DNA of 24,000 bases from Ruania zhangjianzhongii (GTDB lineage Bacteria; Actinomycetota; Actinomycetes; Actinomycetales; Beutenbergiaceae): positions 2,260,882 to 2,284,881 of the forward strand of contig NZ_CP042828.1 in NCBI RefSeq assembly GCF_008000995.1, in the 5' to 3' direction. Made by a program: the position numbers and the translations under genes. Below the pieces are notes generated by a model. It was not told the origin of the DNA. It saw nothing but the letters and a program-made list of their open reading frames with translations, and searched no databases. Shown piece after piece: positions 11,400-21,964 of this stretch (within the stretch, counting starts at the first letter, position 1; every line of letters begins with the position of its first letter).

Positions 11400-11466
11400 G
11401 GTGGCGACGGCGTCCCGTGGGTGCGAATCAGCGGGTGGCGACGGCGTCCCGTGGGTGCGAATCAGC
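11400..11466. repeat. Tandem duplication: two perfect 33-bp copies (period 34) of GGTGGCGACGGCGTCCCGTGGGTGCGAATCAGC
   Basis: The copies at 11400-11432 and 11434-11466 are identical and separated by a single G. A partial ATCAG at 11394-11398 precedes copy 1. Copy 2 contains the stop codon (11462-11464) of the minus-strand VOC gene. Confidence 0.9.
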
Positions 11467-12142
11467 CGGCGCAGTGGTAGCCGTACAGGTCGTCCTGGGT
11501 GCCGTTCACCCAGAGCTGGTGACCGTCCGGGATCTGGACCAGGAGGGTGCGGTTGTAAGCCTCGTCCACCACGGTGGCCCGCACTCCGGCCTCGCTGAGC
11601 CGAGTGCTGAGTGCGTCCAGATCACCGGAGTGCTCCAGGGCCAGCTCGAGCGCTACGGACGGTGCCCGGTGCCAGGCCACCTGCCCTCCGCCGTCGGCCG
11701 TGAAGTCCTTCCAGTTGCCAGAATCGGAGGCGAGCCGGGGCTGCAGGCCCAGGCCGGTGAGGATCGCAGTGGGTTCGTCCGGATCCGGGCCGTACCAGAT
11801 CGGCATGATCGCCACCTGCGTCTGGCCAGAGGCGAGCGTGGGGGTGGGGGAGTCCTCGACGGCGGGACTCACCGTGATCGTGGTGCCGTCCGTGGCGCCG
11901 ACGGCAGGCTCGGCGACGGTGGCGACCGTTTCGGCGGTGGCCAGTGCTGCGCTCGGGTCGGTGACCAGGATGTCCAGGTGGGTGGTGCCGGCGGCGGTGG
12001 CCTCGGTGGTTTCGTGCACGGTGAGCTGGCCGCCACCGGTATAGCGTCCGGGCTCGCCGGTGGGGGAGAAGCCGAGGATCGGGGCGACTCGCTGCCACCA
12101 GCTGAGGTCGGTGGTGGTGTAGACGGCGTGCACCGTGGTCAC
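11462..12142 (-). CDS. Two-module VOC (glyoxalase/bleomycin-resistance/dioxygenase fold)-like protein
   Basis: 226 aa. Two beta-alpha-beta-beta-beta-like modules are visible ([22 protein letters not shown]... and [24 protein letters not shown]...HQLWVNG). GTG 12142 overlaps the RHH stop (GTGA). The family call is made by eye only. Confidence 0.5.
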
Positions 12143-12285
12143 TGGTCAGCCTCCGCGAGATAGCCGGACATCACGCGTTCCACCAGAGCGGACAAGGACT
12201 CCTCCTCGTCGATGGCGCGGTGCTTGATCTGGCGAACCAGGTCCGCCGGCAGATACACGTTGAACTGCACCTTGGCTTCTCGCAT
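12139..12285 (-). CDS. Ribbon-helix-helix (CopG/Arc/MetJ-like) DNA-binding protein
   Basis: Counted from ATG 12285, the 48-aa product is [48 protein letters not shown]. This is a classic RHH layout of beta-strand, helix, helix. The longer ORF beginning at 12360 adds a Cys/Gly-rich leader that is unlikely to be real. Confidence 0.65.
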
Positions 12286-12388
12286 GCTAGCAGTGTAGCA
12301 ACACCCTGAGTGCGGGCCCTGGCCATCGGGACACTCGGCAATCTGGACGGCGATCTTCACGGGCCAAGCCGCCCTTTCAGTGCCGCCC

Positions 12389-12418
12389 TTGCATTAGATC
12401 CAGAATCCTGGATATTGT
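12389..12418 (+). promoter_or_regulatory. Sigma70/HrdB-like promoter TTGCAT-n18-TATTGT with an embedded palindrome ATCCAG-aatc-CTGGAT
   Basis: A locally AT-rich patch sits in GC-rich DNA. The -35-like TTGCAT lies at 12389-12394 and the -10-like TATTGT at 12413-12418. Inverted-repeat arms lie at 12398-12403 and 12408-12413. GTG 12426 lies 7-8 nt after the -10 and has no SD, which suggests a leaderless mRNA. Confidence 0.4.
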
Positions 12419-12425
12419 CTGGTTC

Positions 12426-13340
12426 GTGGCCGTTCCCGGGATTCTGATGTCGCGCGCAGGTTTCGCCGCGATGCGCCTCGCCCAGCGCCTCTCCGCGCTC
12501 TCGGCGGGCGACCGGATCCCGAAGTTCGAAGACCTGGCCACCGAGCTCGGCTGCGGGAAGGGCACTGTCCAGGCGGGCTTCGACCTGCTCGGCGAGGCGG
12601 GCGGGCTGCGGCTACGCTCCCGCGGACGGCTGGGCACCTTCGTGGACGAGATCGACCACACCGTGCTCTGGCGGCTCGCCGGGCAGCGATCGGTATCGGT
12701 CGCGATGCCGTTGCCCTACTCGCGCCGCTACGAGGGGCTGGCAACGGGTCTGCATGCCAGTTTCGCGGATGCCGGTATCCCGCTGACCCTGATGTTCATG
12801 CGCGGATCGGTGGCCCGGCTGCGGGCGCTGGCCGAGGGCCGCGCCGACTTCGTGGTGATGTCCGCCCTGGCGGCCGGTAGCAGCGATGACCTCGAGATCG
12901 TGCACAACTTCGGACCGGGCAGCTATGTGGCCGCCCACGCCCTCATCCTCGCCGACGGCTGCACCGCCGACACCCCCGGCCTGCGGGTGGGAGTCGACCC
13001 GGCCTCGGAGGACCAGGTGCGTCTGGTGGATCGGGCCTTTGGTCCCCTCCCCGGTGCGCAGCGAGTCGAAGTCTCCTACAACCAGCTCGAATCGGCGTTC
13101 CGCGACGGGCGCATCGACGCCACGGTGTGGAACGTCGATGAGATCCGCGCGCACATCAGTGCGCCGGTGAGTATCGAACCGCTGGCACTCGCACGCGATG
13201 CGGCCAATACGCAGGCGGTGATCGTCCGGGCGGCCACCGAGGTGCCGGTACCGGTCGGTGTCCGGGCTGCGCTCACCGCTGCGACTGTTCTCGACCGGGC
13301 CCACGACGTCGTCGCGGGCCGTGCAACCCCGACCTATTAG
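12426..13340 (+). CDS. yhfZ: YhfZ-family transcriptional regulator (GntR-like winged HTH plus a periplasmic-binding-protein-like YhfZ C-domain)
   Basis: The 304-aa ORF has the N-terminal HTH IPKFEDLATELGCGKGTVQAGFDLLGEAGGLRLRSRGRLGTFV. It is followed by an approximately 230-aa alpha/beta domain (VSVAMPLPYSRRYEGLATGL...RVGVDPASEDQ...). It heads a cluster with the other yhf-type genes. Alternative starts are ATG 12447 and ATG 12471. Confidence 0.75.
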   Translation: MAVPGILMSRAGFAAMRLAQRLSALSAGDRIPKFEDLATELGCGKGTVQAGFDLLGEAGGLRLRSRGRLGTFVDEIDHTVLWRLAGQRSVSVAMPLPYSRRYEGLATGLHASFADAGIPLTLMFMRGSVARLRALAEGRADFVVMSALAAGSSDDLEIVHNFGPGSYVAAHALILADGCTADTPGLRVGVDPASEDQVRLVDRAFGPLPGAQRVEVSYNQLESAFRDGRIDATVWNVDEIRAHISAPVSIEPLALARDAANTQAVIVRAATEVPVPVGVRAALTAATVLDRAHDVVAGRATPTY

Positions 13341-13349
13341 GAGCAGCAG

Positions 13350-13730
13350 ATGGATCCGACGCTGCAGGAGCGACTCGACATCTTCCGCGCGATGCCCGCC
13401 GTACCGGACGAGGCGGTCGACCTGGTCGCGGCCGAGCTCACCCGGCTCGACCCGGCACAGACACTGACCGACGACCAGGCCGGCAGCTTTGTCTCGCACG
13501 CCGTCAACGCGCTGGCGCGACTGTCCGCCGGAGACGTCTCGGTCGAAGCGCCCAGCGACACCGTCTACCAGCAGGTGCGGGATGAGGACCCCCAGGCGGA
13601 AGAGCGGGCGCGCGCCTTCGTCGAGCGCGTGCAGGCCCGGCTCGGCCGAGCACTGCCGGAGGCGGAACTGAAGTTCATCACCATCCACTTCGCTGCGTTG
13701 GCGCAGCACACCAGAAAGGAGCACCCGTGA
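13350..13730 (+). CDS. yhfY: Stand-alone PRD-domain protein (YhfY-like)
   Basis: 126 aa, all-helical. Two His residues sit in PRD-like contexts: FVSH(50)AVNAL and FITIH(113)FAAL. Their 63-residue spacing is typical of the two phosphorylatable histidines of one PRD. An AGGAGC RBS precedes ATG 13350. Confidence 0.7.
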   Translation: MDPTLQERLDIFRAMPAVPDEAVDLVAAELTRLDPAQTLTDDQAGSFVSHAVNALARLSAGDVSVEAPSDTVYQQVRDEDPQAEERARAFVERVQARLGRALPEAELKFITIHFAALAQHTRKEHP

Positions 13731-14086
13731 AGATCATCACCGGCGGTGTCGGAAAGGCCCAGGTGGCCGAGGTCCTGAAACCCCTCCTGCGACCCGAGGA
13801 CGAGGTGAGCGTCGGCAGTGACATGGATGCCGCGATCAAGCTGCAGTCCGGCCAGGCCGACTTCTTCCTCGGCACCTGCCACACCGGTGCTGGTGCAAGC
13901 CTGGGGGTGCTGGTCGGCCTCCTCGGCGGCGACCGATGCCACACCTTTGCCCGGAAGATCCCCGCTGCCGAAGACGTGGACCACGCGCTGGCGAGCGGCG
14001 CGGTCGCGCTCGGCTTCTCCGTGGACCAGATCACCGAGGCGGTACCGGTGATCTACGCCGCGCTGCAGCGCCGGAACGAGGGCTGA
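13727..14086 (+). CDS. yhfU: DUF2620 (YhfU-like) small glycine-rich protein
   Basis: 119 aa: MKIITGGVGKAQVAEVL...SDMDAAIKLQSGQADFFLGTCHTGAGASLGVLVGLLG. The RBS GAAAGGAG lies 5 nt upstream. GTG 13727 overlaps the upstream stop (GTGA). Confidence 0.7.
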   Translation: MKIITGGVGKAQVAEVLKPLLRPEDEVSVGSDMDAAIKLQSGQADFFLGTCHTGAGASLGVLVGLLGGDRCHTFARKIPAAEDVDHALASGAVALGFSVDQITEAVPVIYAALQRRNEG

Positions 14087-14087
14087 G

Positions 14088-15485
14088 ATGGGTCACCTCC
14101 CGATGGACGTCACCGCTGGCGGCGTCAGCTTCCTGCTCTGGCAGTCGATCGTCGTCATGGCGGTGACGGCGATCGGTGCGATGATGGCGCACTCCGCTCT
14201 TGCGGTGTTCAACGACGGCGCCCGGCCGTTCATGCTTGACTTCGTCCGCGGTAAGACGAACCGGGCGGCGACGGCCACGATCGTGTTCGGGCTCTCCGCC
14301 GGGTTCATCTTCGGGCTCGGGGCTCCGATGGCCCTGGCCACCGGGGTGCTCAATCCCTGGCTGATCTTCCTGCCTGCCGAGATCCTCGGTCTGCTCGCCC
14401 CCTGGCGCTGGTTGGCAGGTGTGGCCGGTGCGGCTTGGGGCGCGGTGTGCGCGTTCGGTCTGGGTACGGTCAACTCCGTCGCTCAGCAGCTTCCGGTCGA
14501 CTTCATCACCGCCCTGCAGGTACTGGGCGACCCGATTCTGTGGCTGTTCTCGATGTTCCCGGTGCTCGCGGTGGCCCGCCAGTTCGGGCGACTTCGCGGG
14601 TTCATCACCCTGCTGGTCGAGGCGGGCATGATCGTCCTCGCCACCCAGCTCTGGCCGGACATGTTCGCCGGGTCCCTGGCGATGGCGCTCGGTGTGGTGC
14701 TGCTGCTGGTGTTCGCGCTGACCAAGGACCGCACCGCCAAGAGCGAGGAGAAGGTAGCACTCGCGGCGATGAACGCGGACCAGCGCACCGCGGCCGCCGA
14801 GGCGGAGGCCACCAGCGCAGCGGCGGTGAACCAGCTGTTCGGGCCGAACGCGCTCCGGCTCCGCAAGAACATCGTCTGGCTCGCGCTCCTCGGTGGCGCG
14901 GTGGCCGCCCTGTCCGCCACCCACATCTTCGGTGGGGGAGAGGCCACCAGCTTCCTGCTCGCCGACGGCAAGGTGACCGAAGCGGCCCAGGTCGACTTCT
15001 ACCGGGCGTTCGGGTTCATTCCGCTGATTGCCACCACCGCCCTCGCCTCCGGGGCCTACGCGATGGCCGGGTTCACCTTCGTCTACCCGGTCGGCTACCT
15101 GATCGGCGCGGGCTTCGACTCGCCGGCGCTCGCACTGGCCGTGGCGTTCGTCGCCGGTGCCGTGGTGATGGCGCTCGAAGTGCTGGCCCTGTCCTGGGTG
15201 GGGAACTGGCTACAGCGCTGGCCGAGCGTGCGCGACTCGGCCGACCATATCCGCAGTGCGATCACCGAGTCGCTGCAGGTGGCGATCCTGGTCGGTTCGG
15301 TCATGGCGGCCAGCCAGATGGGTGGCGGATTCGGAATCTTCCTCGTCGGTGGCCTCTACCTGGTCAACGAGGCGCTCGGCCGGCCCGTGGTCCGGATGGC
15401 AGCCGGCCCGGCTGCGGTGATCGTCAGCGGCGTGCTGCTCAACCTGCTCTATCTGGTCGGGCTGTTCACCCCGATCGCTGCTTAG
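14088..15485 (+). CDS. yhfT: YhfT-like polytopic inner-membrane protein (putative permease)
   Basis: 465 aa with about 12 hydrophobic segments. They fall into two halves separated by a charged, Ala-rich loop (KDRTAKSEEKVALAAMNADQRTAAAEAEATSAAAVNQ). The gene starts 1 nt after the yhfU-like stop. The assignment rests on position and size within a yhf-type cluster. Confidence 0.7.
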   Translation: MGHLPMDVTAGGVSFLLWQSIVVMAVTAIGAMMAHSALAVFNDGARPFMLDFVRGKTNRAATATIVFGLSAGFIFGLGAPMALATGVLNPWLIFLPAEILGLLAPWRWLAGVAGAAWGAVCAFGLGTVNSVAQQLPVDFITALQVLGDPILWLFSMFPVLAVARQFGRLRGFITLLVEAGMIVLATQLWPDMFAGSLAMALGVVLLLVFALTKDRTAKSEEKVALAAMNADQRTAAAEAEATSAAAVNQLFGPNALRLRKNIVWLALLGGAVAALSATHIFGGGEATSFLLADGKVTEAAQVDFYRAFGFIPLIATTALASGAYAMAGFTFVYPVGYLIGAGFDSPALALAVAFVAGAVVMALEVLALSWVGNWLQRWPSVRDSADHIRSAITESLQVAILVGSVMAASQMGGGFGIFLVGGLYLVNEALGRPVVRMAAGPAAVIVSGVLLNLLYLVGLFTPIAA

Positions 15486-15493
15486 GAGAACCG

Positions 15494-16459
15494 ATGCTCA
15501 TCCAGACGGTCCTCGGCCCGATCCAGCCCGATGCGGTCACCGGACCGGTACTCCCGCACGAGCACCTTGCGCTCGACCTGCGCACCGAGGCGGACGCCGG
15601 TGGCATGCTGTCCGGCCGGCATGCGGCCGCGGTGGCCGCCGAGCTCGCCGACGCCCGCGAGCGGGCGGACCTGAGCCTGGTGATCGATCAGACCTGCCGG
15701 GGGATGGGTCGGGACCCGGACACCCTGCAGACGATCGCTGCTGACTCCGGTGTGCCCGTGGTGGCCAGCACCGGCTGGTACTACCAGCGTTTCCACCCCG
15801 AGGGCGAACCGGGACCGGACCTGGACGCCGCGACCGAACTGCTGCTGACCGATCTGAGGGTGGGGATCGATGGCACCGACGTGTGCGCCGGTCTGATCGG
15901 TGAGATCGGTACCCACGGGCCCGCGCCGACCTCGGCCGAACGGACCAGCCTGCGCGCCGCGGGCCGCGCCAGTGCCCGCACTGGCGCACCGATCGCCACC
16001 CACGCCCACCTGGGCATCGGGGCGCTGGGCCAGCTCGACGTGCTGGCCGACTCCGGTGCCGACCTGGCTCGGGTGTGCGTCGGCCACCAGGATCTGATCG
16101 ACGACGTCGACCAGCACGCCCGGATCGCCGACGCCGGTGCCTACCTCGCCTTCGATACTGTGGGCAAGGAGTCCTACCAGGGGGACGACGTTCGGGTGCG
16201 GATGCTGCTCGCGCTCCTCGAGCAGGGTCTGGGCGCCCATCTGCTGCTGTCCAACGACATCTCCCGGCACTCCTATCTGCGCAGCGAAGGCGGGCAGGGG
16301 TATGCGCACGTGCTCTGCCCGTTCGCGGACCGGCTGCGGGCCGCCGGCGTCGACGGAGCCACCCTCACCATGCTCTACCGGGACAACGCCCTGCGCTGGC
16401 TCACCGGGAGCGAGGACATCGGCCCGGCTGCGGCCCTGCGGATCGGGGTGCGGTCATGA
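15494..16459 (+). CDS. php: Phosphotriesterase-homology protein (Php/YhfV; amidohydrolase superfamily, COG1735)
   Basis: 321 aa counted from ATG 15494 (RBS AGGAGA at 15484-15489). The full binuclear-metal ligand set is visible: H-x-H (LPHEHL), bridging Glu (LIGEIGT), His (IATHAH), His (VGHQD) and Asp (LSNDIS). The remainder of ORF 14435 upstream is a frame artefact overlapping yhfT. Confidence 0.9.
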   Translation: MLIQTVLGPIQPDAVTGPVLPHEHLALDLRTEADAGGMLSGRHAAAVAAELADARERADLSLVIDQTCRGMGRDPDTLQTIAADSGVPVVASTGWYYQRFHPEGEPGPDLDAATELLLTDLRVGIDGTDVCAGLIGEIGTHGPAPTSAERTSLRAAGRASARTGAPIATHAHLGIGALGQLDVLADSGADLARVCVGHQDLIDDVDQHARIADAGAYLAFDTVGKESYQGDDVRVRMLLALLEQGLGAHLLLSNDISRHSYLRSEGGQGYAHVLCPFADRLRAAGVDGATLTMLYRDNALRWLTGSEDIGPAAALRIGVRS

Positions 16460-17562
16460 CCGGGCCGGTGCTGCCCCGCACCCATCCATTGCCGCACCTG
16501 GACGTCGATGCAGCCTTCGGCTTGCAGCAGCGCCTGGTGGCAGCCGCCGGCGACGAGCTGCCCGGGGCAGCCATGTTCACCGCCGACGCCGGGGTCCGGC
16601 CAGAGACAGGACGGCCGCGGACCACGGCGGCCGTTGAACGCGTCCTCGCCACCGCGTTCGGTGCGCAGGCTGCCTGCCTGGTCCAAGGTGCCGGTACCGG
16701 AGCGATCCGGACCGCCCTGTCCGCAGGGCCCTGGGAGGCCGGCGACCGGCGGCTGCTGGTGCACGACGCCCCCGACTACTCCACCACCGCCACCACGTTC
16801 CGCGACGGGATGGTCCAGCCGGTCCGGGCTGACTTTGACCTCCCCGACGCCGTCCAGCGGGCCCTGGCCGACCCCGACGGCCCCGCCTGGGTGTACATCC
16901 AGCACAGCCGGCAGCGTCTGACCGACAGCTTCGACCCGATGCAGGTGGTCGCTGCGGCGCGGGCCGCAGGCCGGCGGGTGATCGTGGACGAGAACTACGC
17001 GGCGGTGCGCACCCCGGCGATCGGCACCGAGCACGGTGCCAGCGCCTCCGCCTTCTCCCTGTTCAAGCTGCACGGACCCGAAGGCATCGGGGTGGTGCTT
17101 GGTGATGACGACCTGATCGAGACCGCCCACCGCGCCAACTACTCCGGCGGCGGTCAGGTGCAAGGCCACCAGGCGCTGCACGCTCTGCAGGCCCTGGTCA
17201 ACGCCCCGCTGAACTGGGCGCGGCAGTCGGCCGAGGTGCACCGCCTCGCCGGCCTGCTCGGCCAGGGCGCGGTCCCCGGGATCGTCGACGCGAAGGTCGC
17301 GAACGTGCAGGATCTGTGTGTCGTCGCGCTGCTCGCCGAGCCGGAGGCCGACCGTGTCCGGGCCGCCGCTGCCACCCACGGGGCCGCGCCCTACCCGGTC
17401 GGCTCGAACAGCCGGTTCGAGGTGGCACCGATGATCTACCGGCTGTCCTCCTCAGCGCTGTCCGCCCAGCCCGAGCTGCGCGACTGGACGCTGCGGATCA
17501 ACCCCATGCGCGCCGGTGCCGACCTCGTGGTCGACATCCTCCGCCGCTCGATCCCGAACTGA
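16456..17562 (+). CDS. yhfS: YhfS-like fold-type-I PLP-dependent enzyme (aminotransferase/lyase-like)
   Basis: 368 aa counted from ATG 16456, which forms an ATGA overlap with the php stop. The Gly-rich loop is VQGAGTGAIRTAL, followed by DENYA and a putative PLP-Lys in SAFSLFKLHGPEG. Confidence 0.7.
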   Translation: MTGPVLPRTHPLPHLDVDAAFGLQQRLVAAAGDELPGAAMFTADAGVRPETGRPRTTAAVERVLATAFGAQAACLVQGAGTGAIRTALSAGPWEAGDRRLLVHDAPDYSTTATTFRDGMVQPVRADFDLPDAVQRALADPDGPAWVYIQHSRQRLTDSFDPMQVVAAARAAGRRVIVDENYAAVRTPAIGTEHGASASAFSLFKLHGPEGIGVVLGDDDLIETAHRANYSGGGQVQGHQALHALQALVNAPLNWARQSAEVHRLAGLLGQGAVPGIVDAKVANVQDLCVVALLAEPEADRVRAAAATHGAAPYPVGSNSRFEVAPMIYRLSSSALSAQPELRDWTLRINPMRAGADLVVDILRRSIPN

Positions 17563-17570
17563 GGGGGCTC

Positions 17571-18743
17571 ATGTTCCTGTCGCTGACCCAGCGCCGTAAC
17601 CCGGCACTGCTCGATTCCGCCCGCGAACTGCACGCCTACGGTCGCATCGGTCCGGACACCTACGTGCTCGACCTGGACGTGATCACCGAGAACGCTCAGA
17701 CGCTGGCCGCCACGGCCGCCGGTCACCAGATCGAGCCCTGGTTCGTGACCAAGCAGATCGGCCGAGTGCCCCCGGTGGCCGCCGCGATCGCCCAGCACAT
17801 TCGCGCCGCCACGGCGATCGACGTCCGTGAGGCACGAGCGGTCACCGCTGCCGGAGTGCGGCTGGGCAACGTGGGCCATCTGGTCCAGGTGCCGCGCCGG
17901 GCGCTGCCGGAGATCCTCGCCTCCGGCCCGGCGTACGTCACCGTCTTCGACCTGGCCAACCTGCGCGCCGTGGCGGAGGCAGCGGCGGGGCTCGGGATCG
18001 TACAACCGGTGCTGCTGCGGATCGCCGGTGACCCGGCCACCACCTACCCCGGCCAGGAGGGCGGCATCGAACCCGCCGCCGTCGCGCAGGTCCTGGACCT
18101 CGCCGCCGGTCTGGAGCACGTCCAGATAGCCGGGGTGACCGCCTTTCCGTGCCTCCTCTTCGACGACGTTTCCGCCCAGGTCCGCCCCACCCCGACCGCC
18201 GACCGGGCGCTCGCCGCAGCCGATGTGCTCCGCACGGCCGGAATCGACCCGGTGATCAACCTGCCCAGTCAGTCCAGCTGCTCGACCATCCCGCTGGTGG
18301 CCGCGCTCGGTGGCACGCACGTCGAACCTGGCCATGCCCTGACCGGGACCACGCCCGAGCATGCCGTCCGGGACCACCTGCCCGAGCGCCCGGGCATGGT
18401 CTACGTCTCCGAGATCGCCCAGACCGAGCCGACACCGGCGGTCTTCGGCGGCGGTTTCTACGCCCGCGGGCATGCTCGGCAGGTGCTGCTCGGGCGCGGA
18501 CCGCAGCTGCGAGAGGCCACCCTGGTGGACACCCCAGCGGAGAACATCGACTACTACCGCCGGCTCCGCCTGGGGGGCGGGAGCGAGCCGGAGCTCGGGG
18601 AGGTCGCCCTGATGGCGTTCCGGACCCAGATCTTCGTGACCCGGTCCCAGGTGGCGGTCGTGGCCGGGATCCAATCCGGCAGCCCCCAGCTCGTCGGCCT
18701 GTTCGACGCCACCGGCCGAGAGCTCTCGGAGGTGGGCGGTTGA
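17571..18743 (+). CDS. yhfX: YhfX-like alanine-racemase-fold (fold-type-III PLP) protein
   Basis: 390 aa counted from ATG 17571 (RBS GAGGGGG). The sequence begins MFLSLTQRRNPALLDSARELH...YVLDLDVI, with a putative PLP-Lys in WFVTKQIG. It shows a TIM-barrel-like alternating pattern followed by a C-terminal beta domain. Confidence 0.75.
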   Translation: MFLSLTQRRNPALLDSARELHAYGRIGPDTYVLDLDVITENAQTLAATAAGHQIEPWFVTKQIGRVPPVAAAIAQHIRAATAIDVREARAVTAAGVRLGNVGHLVQVPRRALPEILASGPAYVTVFDLANLRAVAEAAAGLGIVQPVLLRIAGDPATTYPGQEGGIEPAAVAQVLDLAAGLEHVQIAGVTAFPCLLFDDVSAQVRPTPTADRALAAADVLRTAGIDPVINLPSQSSCSTIPLVAALGGTHVEPGHALTGTTPEHAVRDHLPERPGMVYVSEIAQTEPTPAVFGGGFYARGHARQVLLGRGPQLREATLVDTPAENIDYYRRLRLGGGSEPELGEVALMAFRTQIFVTRSQVAVVAGIQSGSPQLVGLFDATGRELSEVGG

Positions 18744-20011
18744 GTACCACGATCCTCGTCCTGGACGGGTTCGGGATCGGTGCCCTGCCGGACGCGGGTG
18801 ACCTGCGCCCGGGGGACGTTCGCGCGGACACGCTCGGCTCCCTGCTCGCATGGAGCCGGGACGAGCGCCGCAGCACCGCGAACATCCCGTGGTTGACCGC
18901 ACTCGGCCTGGCCGTCCTGCGCCCCGACCTGAACCTGCCCGCACCGCAGCCGGCGCCCGCGCACCTGGAGGTGACTGCCCGGCGCAGCGCCCTCGGCTAC
19001 CCCGGCGCGGACACCTTCGCCGGGCACCAGACGATGATGGGCGCGGACATGTCCCACGTGACCCATTGCCGGGTCGGGGAGCGGCTTGAGCAAGTACGGG
19101 AGGCACTTGAGCTCATCGGTCACCACACCGAGCTTCTCGACGGCCGGGCGGTGATCCTCGTCGACGGGCAGATGCTCGTCCACGACAACCTCGAAGCCGA
19201 CCCAGGACTGAACTGGAATGTGTCCGCACCGCTGGACAAGGTCCGGTGGGAGGACCTGCTGCACGCCGCCCAGGCCGTGCGCGCCGTGGCTCCGGTGGCG
19301 CGGGTGATCGCCGTCGGTGGCTACGCCGACGAGCCGTTGCCGGCCTACGTTCGCCCGGGGGAGGACGCCACGATCGGCCTGGACACCCCGACCAGCGGCT
19401 TCTACCGCAACGGCGGCCTGCAGGTGCGCCACCTCGGTGCCCCGCTCGACCATCACCGTCAGCTGCCGGAAGTTGCAGCCAACGCCGGCCTCCCGGTCAC
19501 CCTGATCGGGAAGGCCGCCGACATCCTCGCTACCGAGGCAGCGGTGGAACGCCGACCCGGAGTCGACACCGCCGCCGTGCTCGCCGACACCCTCGAGGCA
19601 TCCGGCCGACCGGGTCTGGTGATCACCAATGTCCAGCAGACCGACCTGTCCGGGCACCAGCAGGATCCCGGCCGCTACCTCGACCTGCTCGAACAGGTCG
19701 ACGTCGCGATCCCCGACCTGCTCCGCGCACTGGCACCCGGGGAGCAGTTCGTGGTGGTGGCCGACCACGGGAACGACCCGAGGATCGGGCACGCCTTCCA
19801 CACCCGTGAGTACGTCCCCGTGCTCGCCGCCGCCCGGACCACGGAACCGGCCATACCGGTCCGCCGCGGAGACGATCTGCCGTCGCTCGCCGACGTCGGC
19901 GCCTCCGTGGCGCTCAGCCTCGGCCTCGGCGAACACGCCCTCGGCCACGGCGACGCCCACCATCTGACCAGCAGCGAACCCGACCCCGCTACCAGGAGGA
20001 CCCATGCCTGA
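18740..20011 (+). CDS. yhfW: YhfW-like phosphopentomutase-type metalloenzyme (alkaline phosphatase superfamily)
   Basis: The start is probably TTG 18740, which forms a TTGA overlap with the yhfX stop. ILVLDGFGIG carries the metal-binding Asp. GADTFAGHQ carries the candidate Thr nucleophile in a GxDTxxGH context. VVADHGNDP and HTREYVPV are also present. All are phosphopentomutase-like motifs. Confidence 0.8.
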   Translation: MSTTILVLDGFGIGALPDAGDLRPGDVRADTLGSLLAWSRDERRSTANIPWLTALGLAVLRPDLNLPAPQPAPAHLEVTARRSALGYPGADTFAGHQTMMGADMSHVTHCRVGERLEQVREALELIGHHTELLDGRAVILVDGQMLVHDNLEADPGLNWNVSAPLDKVRWEDLLHAAQAVRAVAPVARVIAVGGYADEPLPAYVRPGEDATIGLDTPTSGFYRNGGLQVRHLGAPLDHHRQLPEVAANAGLPVTLIGKAADILATEAAVERRPGVDTAAVLADTLEASGRPGLVITNVQQTDLSGHQQDPGRYLDLLEQVDVAIPDLLRALAPGEQFVVVADHGNDPRIGHAFHTREYVPVLAAARTTEPAIPVRRGDDLPSLADVGASVALSLGLGEHALGHGDAHHLTSSEPDPATRRTHA

Positions 20012-20288
20012 GCGCACCGCCACCATCGCCTCGACCTCTGGCCTGCACGCCCGGCCCGCGAACCTGTTCGTCCAGGCCGTCCAGAGGGCCGGACTGCCGG
20101 TCCAGATCGCGCGGGCCGGCCAACCCGGCGTGGACGCGCGCAGCATCCTGTCGGTGATGGGTCTGGGGGCCAAGCATGGCGAGCAGGTGGTGCTCAGCAC
20201 CGACGCCGATGACAGCCAAGGGGCACTTGAGGACCTGGTCACGCTCTTGGAAACCGACCTGGACGCCGCCGAGAGCACTGACCGATGA
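20004..20288 (+). CDS. ptsH: Phosphocarrier protein HPr
   Basis: 94 aa. His15 sits in TSGLH(15)ARPA and the regulatory-Ser region reads DARSILSVMGLGA. The RBS is AGGAGGA at 19994-20000. The start overlaps the yhfW-like 3' end by 8 nt. Confidence 0.9.
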   Translation: MPERTATIASTSGLHARPANLFVQAVQRAGLPVQIARAGQPGVDARSILSVMGLGAKHGEQVVLSTDADDSQGALEDLVTLLETDLDAAESTDR

Positions 20289-21964
20289 CGCCTGGGACTG
20301 CCCGTGGTGCTGGCGTCGGGTATGGCGCCGGAATCGGCCTGGCCGTCCACGTGCCACCAGCGCCGGTCGCGCCCGAGCACGAGGCCGCCGAGGACATCGA
20401 GACCGCCACGGCCAGGATCCACGACGCGTTCGACCAGGTTGCCCGCGCGCTGACCGATCGGGCCGCGCACGCCACCGGCCCGCTCGCCGAGACGCTGGCC
20501 GCGGCCGCGACGATGGCGGCGGATCCCGCACTGACCGATCAGACCGTCCGGCAGGCCGGCGCGGGCTTCGGCCCGGCAACCGCTGTGACCCGGGCCGTCG
20601 AGAGCTTCGCCACCACCTTCCAGGAGGCCGGCGGCTATCTGGCCGAACGGGTGACCGACCTGGTCAGCGTCCGGGACCGGGTGGTCGCCCTGCTCCTCGG
20701 CCAAGACGAACCTGGCATGCCGGCACTGATCGGGCGGAGCGTGATCATCGCCGCCGATCTGGCCCCTGCGGACACCGCAGCGCTCGACCTGGACCTGATC
20801 GCCGGCATCGTCACTGCGGCCGGCGGTCCGACCAGCCACACGGCGATCATCGCCCGTCAGCTCGGTATCCCCTGCGTGGTCGGGGCAGCCGCCGCACTCC
20901 AGCTACCCGCCGGGGCCCGCATCCTGGTGGACGCCGCCAGCGGGACCGTGGTCGCCGACCCCGACGAGGAGAGGGTCGCCCTAGCCCTGCGCCGTGCCCG
21001 GCGACTCGCTGAGGTTGCCGAGGACGACCGGCCCGCCGCCACCAGCGACGGCCACCGGATCCAGCTCCTGGCCAACATCGGCACCCCGGAGGACGCGCTA
21101 CGCGCGGCGAGTACCGCCGTCGACGGCGTGGGACTGTTCCGTACCGAGATGCTGTATCTCGACCGGGCCGCCGCGCCCAGCTCCGCCGAACAGGTGGGTG
21201 TGTACCGGCAGGTGCTCGACGCATTCGACGGCCGCAAGGTCGTACTGCGCACCCTCGATGCCGGGGCAGACAAGCCGCTCACCTTCGCCACCGCTGACGG
21301 CGAGGCGAACCCCGCGCTCGGGCTGCGCGGCTACCGCACCGCGCGCCGGCACCCGGAGCTGCTCGAGGACCAGCTCGCCGCCATCGCCGAGGCTGCCACC
21401 GACCACCCATCCCCGGTATGGGTGATGGCGCCGATGATCAGTACCGCTGGTGAGGCGGCAGAATTCGCCGCGCGGGCCCGCTCGCACGGGATCACTACCG
21501 TCGGTGCGATGGTCGAGGTCCCCAGCGCGGCCCTGCTCGCCGACGAACTGCTCGCCCCGCTCGACTTCCTGTCGCTGGGCACCAACGACCTGACCCAGTA
21601 CGTGATGGCGGCCGACCGGCTCAGCACCGACCTCGCCGACCTGACCGACCGGTGGCAACCGGCCGTGCTCCGGCTGGTGGCGGCCACCGTCCGTGCCGGA
21701 AAGACGGCGGGGAAACCCGTCGGCGTGTGCGGGGAGTCGGCTGCCGACCCGTTGATGGCGCTGGTACTCACCGGACTGGGCATCTCCAGCTTGTCCATGT
21801 CTGCGCCGTCGGTCGGCGGAGTGCGCTATGCCTTACGCGCTCACGACCTGCGCGCCTGCCGCCGGATGGCCGAGGCGGCGCTGGCCGCCCCTGATGCTGC
21901 GGCCGCTCGCTCGGCGGCAGCGGCGCTGCTGGACGAGACGGTCCGGGAGACTCTGCACGTCTGA
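20285..21964 (+). CDS. ptsI: Phosphoenolpyruvate-protein phosphotransferase (PTS Enzyme I)
   Basis: 559 aa. The active-site His lies in GGPTSHTAIIARQLGIPCVVG. The PEP-binding region reads FRTEMLYL...LRTLDAGADKP...MVEVPSA...LSLGTNDLTQY. The catalytic Cys lies in VGVCGESAADP. The start forms an ATGA overlap with the ptsH stop. Confidence 0.95.
   Translation: MTPGTARGAGVGYGAGIGLAVHVPPAPVAPEHEAAEDIETATARIHDAFDQVARALTDRAAHATGPLAETLAAAATMAADPALTDQTVRQAGAGFGPATAVTRAVESFATTFQEAGGYLAERVTDLVSVRDRVVALLLGQDEPGMPALIGRSVIIAADLAPADTAALDLDLIAGIVTAAGGPTSHTAIIARQLGIPCVVGAAAALQLPAGARILVDAASGTVVADPDEERVALALRRARRLAEVAEDDRPAATSDGHRIQLLANIGTPEDALRAASTAVDGVGLFRTEMLYLDRAAAPSSAEQVGVYRQVLDAFDGRKVVLRTLDAGADKPLTFATADGEANPALGLRGYRTARRHPELLEDQLAAIAEAATDHPSPVWVMAPMISTAGEAAEFAARARSHGITTVGAMVEVPSAALLADELLAPLDFLSLGTNDLTQYVMAADRLSTDLADLTDRWQPAVLRLVAATVRAGKTAGKPVGVCGESAADPLMALVLTGLGISSLSMSAPSVGGVRYALRAHDLRACRRMAEAALAAPDAAAARSAAAALLDETVRETLHV

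Follow-up and report, generated by a model that had tools for sequence, protein, structure and literature searches.

YhfY, a stand-alone PRD protein of the yhf operon, is a candidate receiver of HPr phosphate coupled to YhfU and YhfT rather than to the regulator YhfZ

To our knowledge, the phosphotransferase system (PTS) regulation domain (PRD) is known only as a part of larger transcription regulators. In the MtlR, LicR and LevR activators, PRDs are combined with a small, Cys-bearing α/β domain of the EIIB-Gat-like type and are controlled by HPr, and in LicT, His207 and His269 of the second PRD (PRD2) are established sites of HPr-dependent phosphorylation. The yhf/php cluster of Escherichia coli K-12 is already annotated with its YhfY/YhfZ gene pair, the products being a "PRD domain-containing protein YhfY" (b3382), which is an uncharacterised form of PRD, and a "putative DNA-binding transcriptional regulator YhfZ" (b3383). 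Here we analyze the yhf operon in a 24,000-nucleotide stretch (the window) of the 5.1 Mb, high-GC chromosome of the actinobacterium Ruania zhangjianzhongii. Ten genes on one strand (12426–21964), with abutting or overlapping junctions, run from yhfZ and yhfY to a ptsH-ptsI pair that is translationally coupled to the yhf genes (Table 1); judged by the family models, the assignments of the operon genes are unambiguous. We propose, with moderate confidence, that YhfY is a receiver of HPr phosphate working with YhfU and, via YhfU, with YhfT, and that YhfZ is a separate repressor.

YhfY matches the Pfam PRD model (PF00874) with 27.9 bits (cut-off 23), its residues 39–116 lying on profile positions 15–89 of 90. 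Only one PRD match was found, without the duplicated PRD1 and PRD2 arrangement of PRD regulators, and no other family was detected at E ≤ 10, including any nucleic-acid-binding domain (CAT, helix-turn-helix (HTH)/Mga or NtrC-type) or Enzyme II (EII) domain. By this domain content, with neither a fused nucleic-acid-binding domain nor duplicated PRDs, YhfY is outside the PRD-regulator families. Its two histidines, His50 (codon 13497–13499) and His113 (codon 13686–13688), are 63 residues apart, and a GGAG sequence located 8–9 nt upstream of the yhfY start overlaps the yhfZ stop codon. Searches with the single sequence gave nothing usable: phmmer against the PDB returned only spurious armadillo-repeat matches, and pairwise BLASTP produced no alignment with E. 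coli YhfY. Profiles were therefore needed. With a profile built from eight close homologues, the best real PDB match is the LicT PRD fragment 1TLV, in which chain residues 151–217 align with residues 47–114 of YhfY. His50 falls on the histidine of FVTH and His113 on that of LTIH (chain positions 154 and 216), which would be LicT His207 and His269 with an offset of 53; the two chain histidines are 62 residues apart, the same spacing as His207/His269. The LicT H207D/H269D mutant chain 1H99 scores worse and is matched through PRD1 only, which fits the assignment of the YhfY histidines to the PRD2 sites. The first-pass annotation had described the 126-aa open reading frame (ORF) as essentially one PRD with two conserved histidines, which is borne out. 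It had also named a failure of these histidines to align with phosphorylatable PRD positions as a refutation of its idea, and the alignment passes this test.

A profile search of 1.84 billion representatives returned 120 proteins at E ≤ 0.001, of which ~104 are stand-alone proteins of 105–170 aa. His50 and Arg57 are conserved in 104 of the 104 stand-alone representatives, Glu106 in 103, Arg8 in 101 and His113 in 99. His50 is likewise conserved in 80 of 80 loci of our comparative set, which comprises Actinomycetota only and was sampled by YhfU, not by YhfY (79 loci are informative). YhfY fits a stand-alone PRD family of the yhf cluster, with a single PRD in ~110–135 aa, that is encoded alongside DUF2620, YhfT, PTE, YhfX and YhfW proteins; the family forms ~100 clusters at 50% identity and spreads over Actinomycetota, Firmicutes, Mollicutes and Proteobacteria, including E. 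coli K-12. None of the 79 informative actinobacterial loci lacks YhfY, nor does any of the ten contexts sampled beyond Actinomycetota.

No EIIA, EIIB or EIIC family is recognizable in the operon, as determined by comparing the EII families with the operon proteins and by checking YhfY, YhfU and YhfT at E ≤ 10, which makes YhfY the obvious phosphate acceptor. The whole genome was inventoried for eight families, PF00381, PF05524, PF00874, PF00359, PF02378, PF00358, PF02302 and PF03611. YhfY is the only match to the PRD model in the genome. Besides the operon HPr, the inventory contains two HPr-type sequences, a stand-alone HPr and a DhaM-type fusion of EIIA-Man with HPr whose gene adjoins a Dak2 gene (three in total), as well as two Enzyme I genes and one EIIA-Glc near the non-operon Enzyme I, and no match to PF00359, PF02378, PF02302 or PF03611. 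Taken with the position of its histidines, HPr-dependent phosphorylation of YhfY is probable, and HPr would be the phosphate donor. The PTS sites outside the operon are found at C1:1585851 (L002), C1:127394 (L001) and C1:1509055-1512578; the non-operon Enzyme I is a 754-aa open frame adjoining the EIIA-Glc gene, and on this inventory the PTS outside the operon looks small.

Among the 80 actinobacterial loci, an in-cluster HPr gene is found in the window and in L014, L055, L060 and L064, accompanied by Enzyme I in the window, L055 and L060; these loci occupy at least five separate places on the YhfT tree. In-cluster HPr is also seen in Firmicutes, namely in L089, L090 and the metagenomic contig that carries P0269. 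The last gene of the operon encodes HPr in Clostridium sp. D2Q-11 and Hydrogenispora ethanolica, and the P0269 contig has the tail ...yhfW-ptsH-ptsI, as in the window. Operon-linked HPr proteins share 45–57% identity within Actinomycetota and ~30% across phyla. They resemble the HPr of their own phylum, which argues for repeated recruitment instead of one lineage and against a dedicated cross-phylum HPr lineage, a reading that was rejected. Where the cluster has no HPr gene of its own, HPr and Enzyme I are encoded elsewhere in the genome in 5 of the 5 genomes checked. L055 (7650-9070, 12648-14646) is a divergent locus without yhfZ; upstream of it stand a divergent TetR gene and one for a GAF-ANTAR protein, the yhfS position is taken by ptsI-ptsH in opposite orientation, and a ribulose-phosphate 3-epimerase gene follows yhfW.

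The first-pass annotation had rightly assumed an operon-encoded HPr and had rightly read, directly upstream of yhfY, a winged-HTH regulator with a ligand-binding domain and no PRD. It had further proposed that HPr-phosphorylated YhfY may act in trans on YhfZ, which would make a PRD regulator of two polypeptides; in this model, YhfY would bind YhfZ and thereby control its contact with DNA. The latter proposal has several points in its favor: YhfZ has no PRD and YhfY no DNA-binding domain, the YhfY histidines align with HPr-type PRD2 sites, and the two genes adjoin in 72 of the 79 informative actinobacterial loci (~90%) and in most other contexts, including most of those in Firmicutes, an adjacency that is kept in the rearranged E. 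coli cluster. What is found where YhfZ is lost speaks against it. YhfZ is absent beside YhfY in seven loci (L036, L054, L055, L068, L070, L072 and L083), which are flanked by unrelated or housekeeping genes and represent losses in at least four separate places on the YhfT tree. No YhfZ_C match above the cut-off was found anywhere in five yhfZ-less genomes, while the positive control detected YhfZ_C in 5/5 YhfZ-bearing genomes (E = 1e-52 to 1e-63). YhfY of all the yhfZ-less loci keeps R8, H50, R57, E106 and H113, and of 35 YhfY columns conserved at ≥85% in YhfZ-bearing loci, no column differs in more than one loss lineage. From these alignments, no surface of YhfY appears to have been released from constraint after the loss of YhfZ. 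In Mycoplasma todarodis, the Y-U-T genes stand beside a plain GntR protein in place of YhfZ, and in Lactobacillus rhamnosus the accession order in a published protein table, the only basis for adjacency there, suggests that Y-U-T lies beside a sigma-54/LevR-type regulator.

The gene fusions that were found join YhfY to YhfU. In the window (GTGA) and in 28 of the 80 loci, the yhfY stop overlaps the yhfU start, and two natural YhfY-YhfU fusions exist, which are independent and have opposite orders. In P0075 (267 aa), an entire DUF2620 is followed by a linker rich in Pro, Ala and Ser and then by an entire YhfY; the Cys and the two His residues are preserved. P0280 (216 aa) is a YhfY-DUF2620 protein encoded between yhfZ and yhfT on five biogas-type metagenome contigs (including L087:9001-9651 and L088:6463-7113). 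No YhfZ-PRD fusion was found among the hits examined. Across the range from E. coli to Mycoplasma, the YhfU loop G-x-C51-x-T/S-G does not vary, whereas the neighboring His52 does. An AlphaFold2 model of YhfU calculated from an alignment has a predicted local distance difference test score (pLDDT) of 95.3 (the single-sequence model is poor, with pLDDT 55.7), and its best PDB fold matches are RpiB 5ifz, with a template modeling (TM) score of 0.66–0.67, and 3he8. The reading of YhfU as a PTS EIIB finds no support, as no EII family matches it at E ≤ 10 and its fold matches RpiB. For YhfT, the PTS EIIC families gave no hit at E ≤ 10.

YhfZ scores 280.7 bits against the NCBIfam equivalog NF041241 (YhfZ_full; cut-off 260), and 35.7 and 182.5 bits against Pfam HTH_41 and YhfZ_C, respectively; no PRD was found in it by the Pfam and NCBIfam scans. 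It shares 33% identity with E. coli YhfZ over the full length (E = 3e-46), and its C-terminal domain matches PDB 2OZZ. The yhfZ start codon follows the putative −10 element after only 7 nt, which suggests a leaderless mRNA. A consensus promoter and terminator scan called nothing at this site (the −35 element matches at 3/6 positions), so the putative promoter is assigned from comparison across species, 67 related loci sharing the layout TTGnCA / palindrome / TAnTGT / 6–8 nt / start codon. Of 73 loci, 67 have a palindrome of the ATCCAGAATCCTGGAT type 27–37 nt before the yhfZ start; they range from Georgenia, Cellulomonas, Jiangella and Aeromicrobium through Streptomyces. When 1.5 Mb of loci were searched with up to three mismatches, 111 hits were obtained, of which 64 precede yhfZ, another 45 fall in the yhfZ–yhfY interval and only 2 lie at other sites; the palindrome is missing from all seven loci without yhfZ. 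Given its position, its conservation and its co-loss with YhfZ, YhfZ looks like a conventional, self-contained GntR-type repressor that would bind and act at the palindrome independently of YhfY.

Most Streptomyces loci have a second copy; the 45 loci that carry it, mostly from this genus, have it 40–60 nt upstream of yhfY. By operator placement, yhfY in these loci is the head of a regulated structural operon and not merely co-expressed with the regulator. In a Streptomyces clade (L025, L027, L028 and L029), ~1.5 kb separates yhfZ from yhfY and holds an inserted gene with YhfT-like similarity; the second operator copy remains just upstream of yhfY. Firmicutes promoters, inspected by eye, contain a related palindrome, (G)TACA-N6-TGTA(C), just downstream of a TATAAT-like −10 element (upstream of L087:8004 and L090:7963, and in L092:5510-5676), so that the operator may be built alike there and differ in its half-sites.

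These observations point to YhfU and YhfT rather than to YhfZ as the partner of YhfY, since YhfY is universal in the cluster and equally constrained without YhfZ, its gene overlaps yhfU, it is fused with YhfU, and a second operator precedes yhfY. In the proposed mechanism, phosphate would pass from phosphoenolpyruvate (PEP) through Enzyme I and the operon's own HPr to YhfY, which would be phosphorylated on His50, the residue universal in the family, and on His113. The obligate partner of YhfY would be the adjacent core module, that is, YhfU and through it the YhfT permease, and not YhfZ. Phosphorylated YhfY would either switch this uptake or first-step module on, with YhfU/YhfT activated or inhibited depending on phosphorylation, or pass its phosphate to the module, in a relay from HPr via YhfY and Cys51 of YhfU to the substrate. 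We infer YhfU/YhfT as the target, and likewise the direction of the effect. YhfZ would sit on the palindrome between the −35 and −10 elements of the leaderless promoter and would presumably be released when a small ligand binds YhfZ_C.

Several points weigh against this proposal. Clusters are inherited as blocks, and adjacency is weak evidence for physical contact. The frequent Z-Y adjacency has its counterpart in E. coli, where yhfY adjoins yhfZ and is separated from yhfU and yhfT by yhfX, yhfW and php, and crude mirror-tree partial correlations are 0.24 for Y-Z, −0.21 for Y-U and 0.04 for Y-T. E. coli YhfY has no second histidine (Asn is found there), and the fusion P0280 lacks both the last PRD helix, which carries the second His, and the first ~12 residues (the first strand) of DUF2620. 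The YhfU Cys occupies an RpiB-like isomerase position and is not set in a PTS EIIB fold, a fold absent from the top 50 PDB fold matches of the model; on this model, YhfU may simply be an enzyme. No functional study of YhfY or YhfZ was found in the literature.

Besides the points given above, action of YhfY through YhfZ has weak further support from the partial correlation of 0.24 between Y and Z. Against it stand the unchanged constraints on YhfY in at least four lineages and five whole genomes without YhfZ and its operator, the other regulators beside Y-U-T in M. todarodis and apparently L. rhamnosus, and the second operator, which would make yhfY itself a YhfZ target gene in Streptomyces. 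In addition, all the fusions found are with YhfU and none with YhfZ, and YhfZ already carries its own ligand-binding-type domain. We judge the evidence against YhfY acting through YhfZ stronger than the evidence for it and regard the split regulator of the first-pass annotation as unlikely, although YhfY may also influence YhfZ in those genomes that encode both.

About equally doubtful is a reading in which YhfY is itself a phosphocarrier, so that phosphate moves from HPr to a YhfY histidine, then to Cys51 of YhfU and finally to the substrate imported by YhfT, with the PRD taking the role of Enzyme IIA in a non-canonical PTS branch. The operon encodes enzyme families that typically act on phosphorylated sugars and no kinase: YhfW resembles phosphopentomutases, YhfU resembles RpiB, and the PTE-family php product weakly matches phospho-furanose lactonase. 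It has a dedicated Enzyme I and HPr, yet no recognizable Enzyme II, and the Y-U-T order, the Y/U overlap and the Y-U fusions in two orders mimic an EIIA-EIIB-EIIC organization. Cys51, and not its neighbor His52, is invariant across phyla, and within the cluster YhfY equals the enzymes in invariance and exceeds the regulator YhfZ. A phosphorylated PRD histidine can also return its phosphate to an EIIB cysteine, as in BglG/BglF; however, we know of no PRD that carries phosphate to a substrate. YhfU has its Cys where RpiB isomerases of like fold have the catalytic base, and it retains the partner Thr/Ser; no EIIB is among its top 50 fold matches. YhfT has no detectable relation to EIIC families, and a kinase gene may lie at another site in the genome. 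Both this relay and the regulation of YhfZ could coexist with YhfY acting on YhfU/YhfT in genomes that have YhfZ. Finally, it is very improbable that YhfY is a degenerate, unphosphorylated PRD serving as a structural or chaperone-like subunit while the operon HPr and Enzyme I serve something else: the PRD score is modest and the second histidine is lost in E. coli, but His50 is invariant in all representatives and actinobacterial loci, Arg57 and Glu106 show the (near) invariance seen in functional PRDs, and the operon holds no other PTS acceptor domain.

If the coupling of YhfY to YhfU and YhfT holds, a conserved PRD-only family that is fed by HPr and coupled to a partner that does not bind DNA would be a new output of the PTS, either as transporter or enzyme control or as a new phosphate relay. 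The relay branch, if true, would be a type of phosphotransferase branch not recognized before, and it would explain a pathway of phospho-sugar type without a kinase and the repeated recruitment of ptsH or ptsHI. The analysis would also give a concrete handle on the yhf/php operon, a long-uncharacterised gene cluster of E. coli, by naming likely candidates for the phosphate entry point (His50 of YhfY), its partner (Cys51 of YhfU) and the YhfZ operator.

Table 1. Promoter, operator and genes of the yhf operon, in window coordinates.
Feature	Position	Strand	Description
Putative promoter	12389-12418	+	TTGCAT-n18-TATTGT, read from the sequence; yhfZ start codon 7 nt past the −10
Probable YhfZ operator	12398-12413	strandless	16-bp palindrome ATCCAGAATCCTGGAT; fills the −35/−10 spacer
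yhfZ	12426-13340	+	GTG start, 304 aa; GntR-like winged-HTH HTH_41 and YhfZ_C ligand-binding-type domain; no PRD
yhfY	13350-13730	+	ATG start, 126 aa; stand-alone single PRD
yhfU	13727-14086	+	DUF2620 (Pfam); RpiB-like α/β protein; motif G-x-C51-x-T-G
yhfT	14088-15485	+	PF10797; polytopic membrane protein; presumed permease
php	15494-16459	+	PTE-family protein
yhfS	16456-17562	+	Pyridoxal-phosphate (PLP)-type protein
yhfX	17571-18743	+	PLP-type protein
yhfW	18740-20011	+	Matches phosphopentomutase-like model PRK12383
ptsH (HPr)	20004-20288	+	PF00381, 78 bits; His15 within GLHARPA motif
ptsI (Enzyme I)	20285-21964	+	559 aa, all three Enzyme I domains

The family scans detected no kinase family among the php, yhfS, yhfX and yhfW products. 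A divergent 73-aa ORF lies on the reverse strand ahead of the yhf promoter (12139-12360); its product has a ribbon-helix-helix (CopG-type) match, and it overlaps a 226-aa gene (11462-12142) at that gene's start. The Firmicutes and Mollicutes clusters (L087, L089, L090, L092, L094 and L096) have a ninth gene between yhfT and php that is absent from the window; its product is ~325–375 aa long and amidase-like (a weak PF01425 match). In L089, a NagB/6-phosphogluconolactonase-type gene precedes the HPr gene.

The closest described cluster is yhfZYXW-php-yhfUTS of E. coli K-12, which has the same eight-gene set and the same YhfY and YhfZ families, with Z adjoining Y. E. coli YhfY matches the YhfY family profile (E = 6e-25), although it is too diverged from YhfY of the window for pairwise BLASTP. 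It keeps the first histidine (MTHMASALMR) and has Asn at the position of the second (L093:11061-11423). The gene order is Y-U-T in the window, whereas Y is separated from U-T in E. coli, and the window cluster ends in ptsH-ptsI, which the E. coli cluster does not contain.

Among proteins of described function, LicT PRD2 (1TLV and 1H99; a BglG/SacY-type antiterminator) resembles YhfY through the alignment of residues 47–114, which sets His50 and His113 on His207 and His269. However, each LicT chain contains an RNA-binding CAT domain and two PRDs, whereas YhfY has one PRD with nothing attached. The YhfU-YhfY fusions superficially resemble the pairing of PRD and Cys-bearing domain in MtlR, LicR and LevR; the chains of these activators also carry HTH/Mga or NtrC modules and EIIA-like domains, and the YhfU fold is RpiB-like, not EIIB-like. 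The RpiB/LacAB isomerases give YhfU its best fold match, with the G-x-C-x-T-G loop aligned with the catalytic Cys loop. YhfU is ~30 residues shorter than RpiB, the sequence similarity is not significant (E = 0.22), and what we take to be the N-terminal Asp-His motif of RpiB is missing. In PTS-Ntr (EI-Ntr/NPr/EIIA-Ntr) and DhaM-DhaL-DhaK, a dedicated pair of Enzyme I and HPr type likewise feeds a soluble, non-permease acceptor; those acceptors are of EIIA type, whereas the acceptor in the yhf operon would be a PRD.

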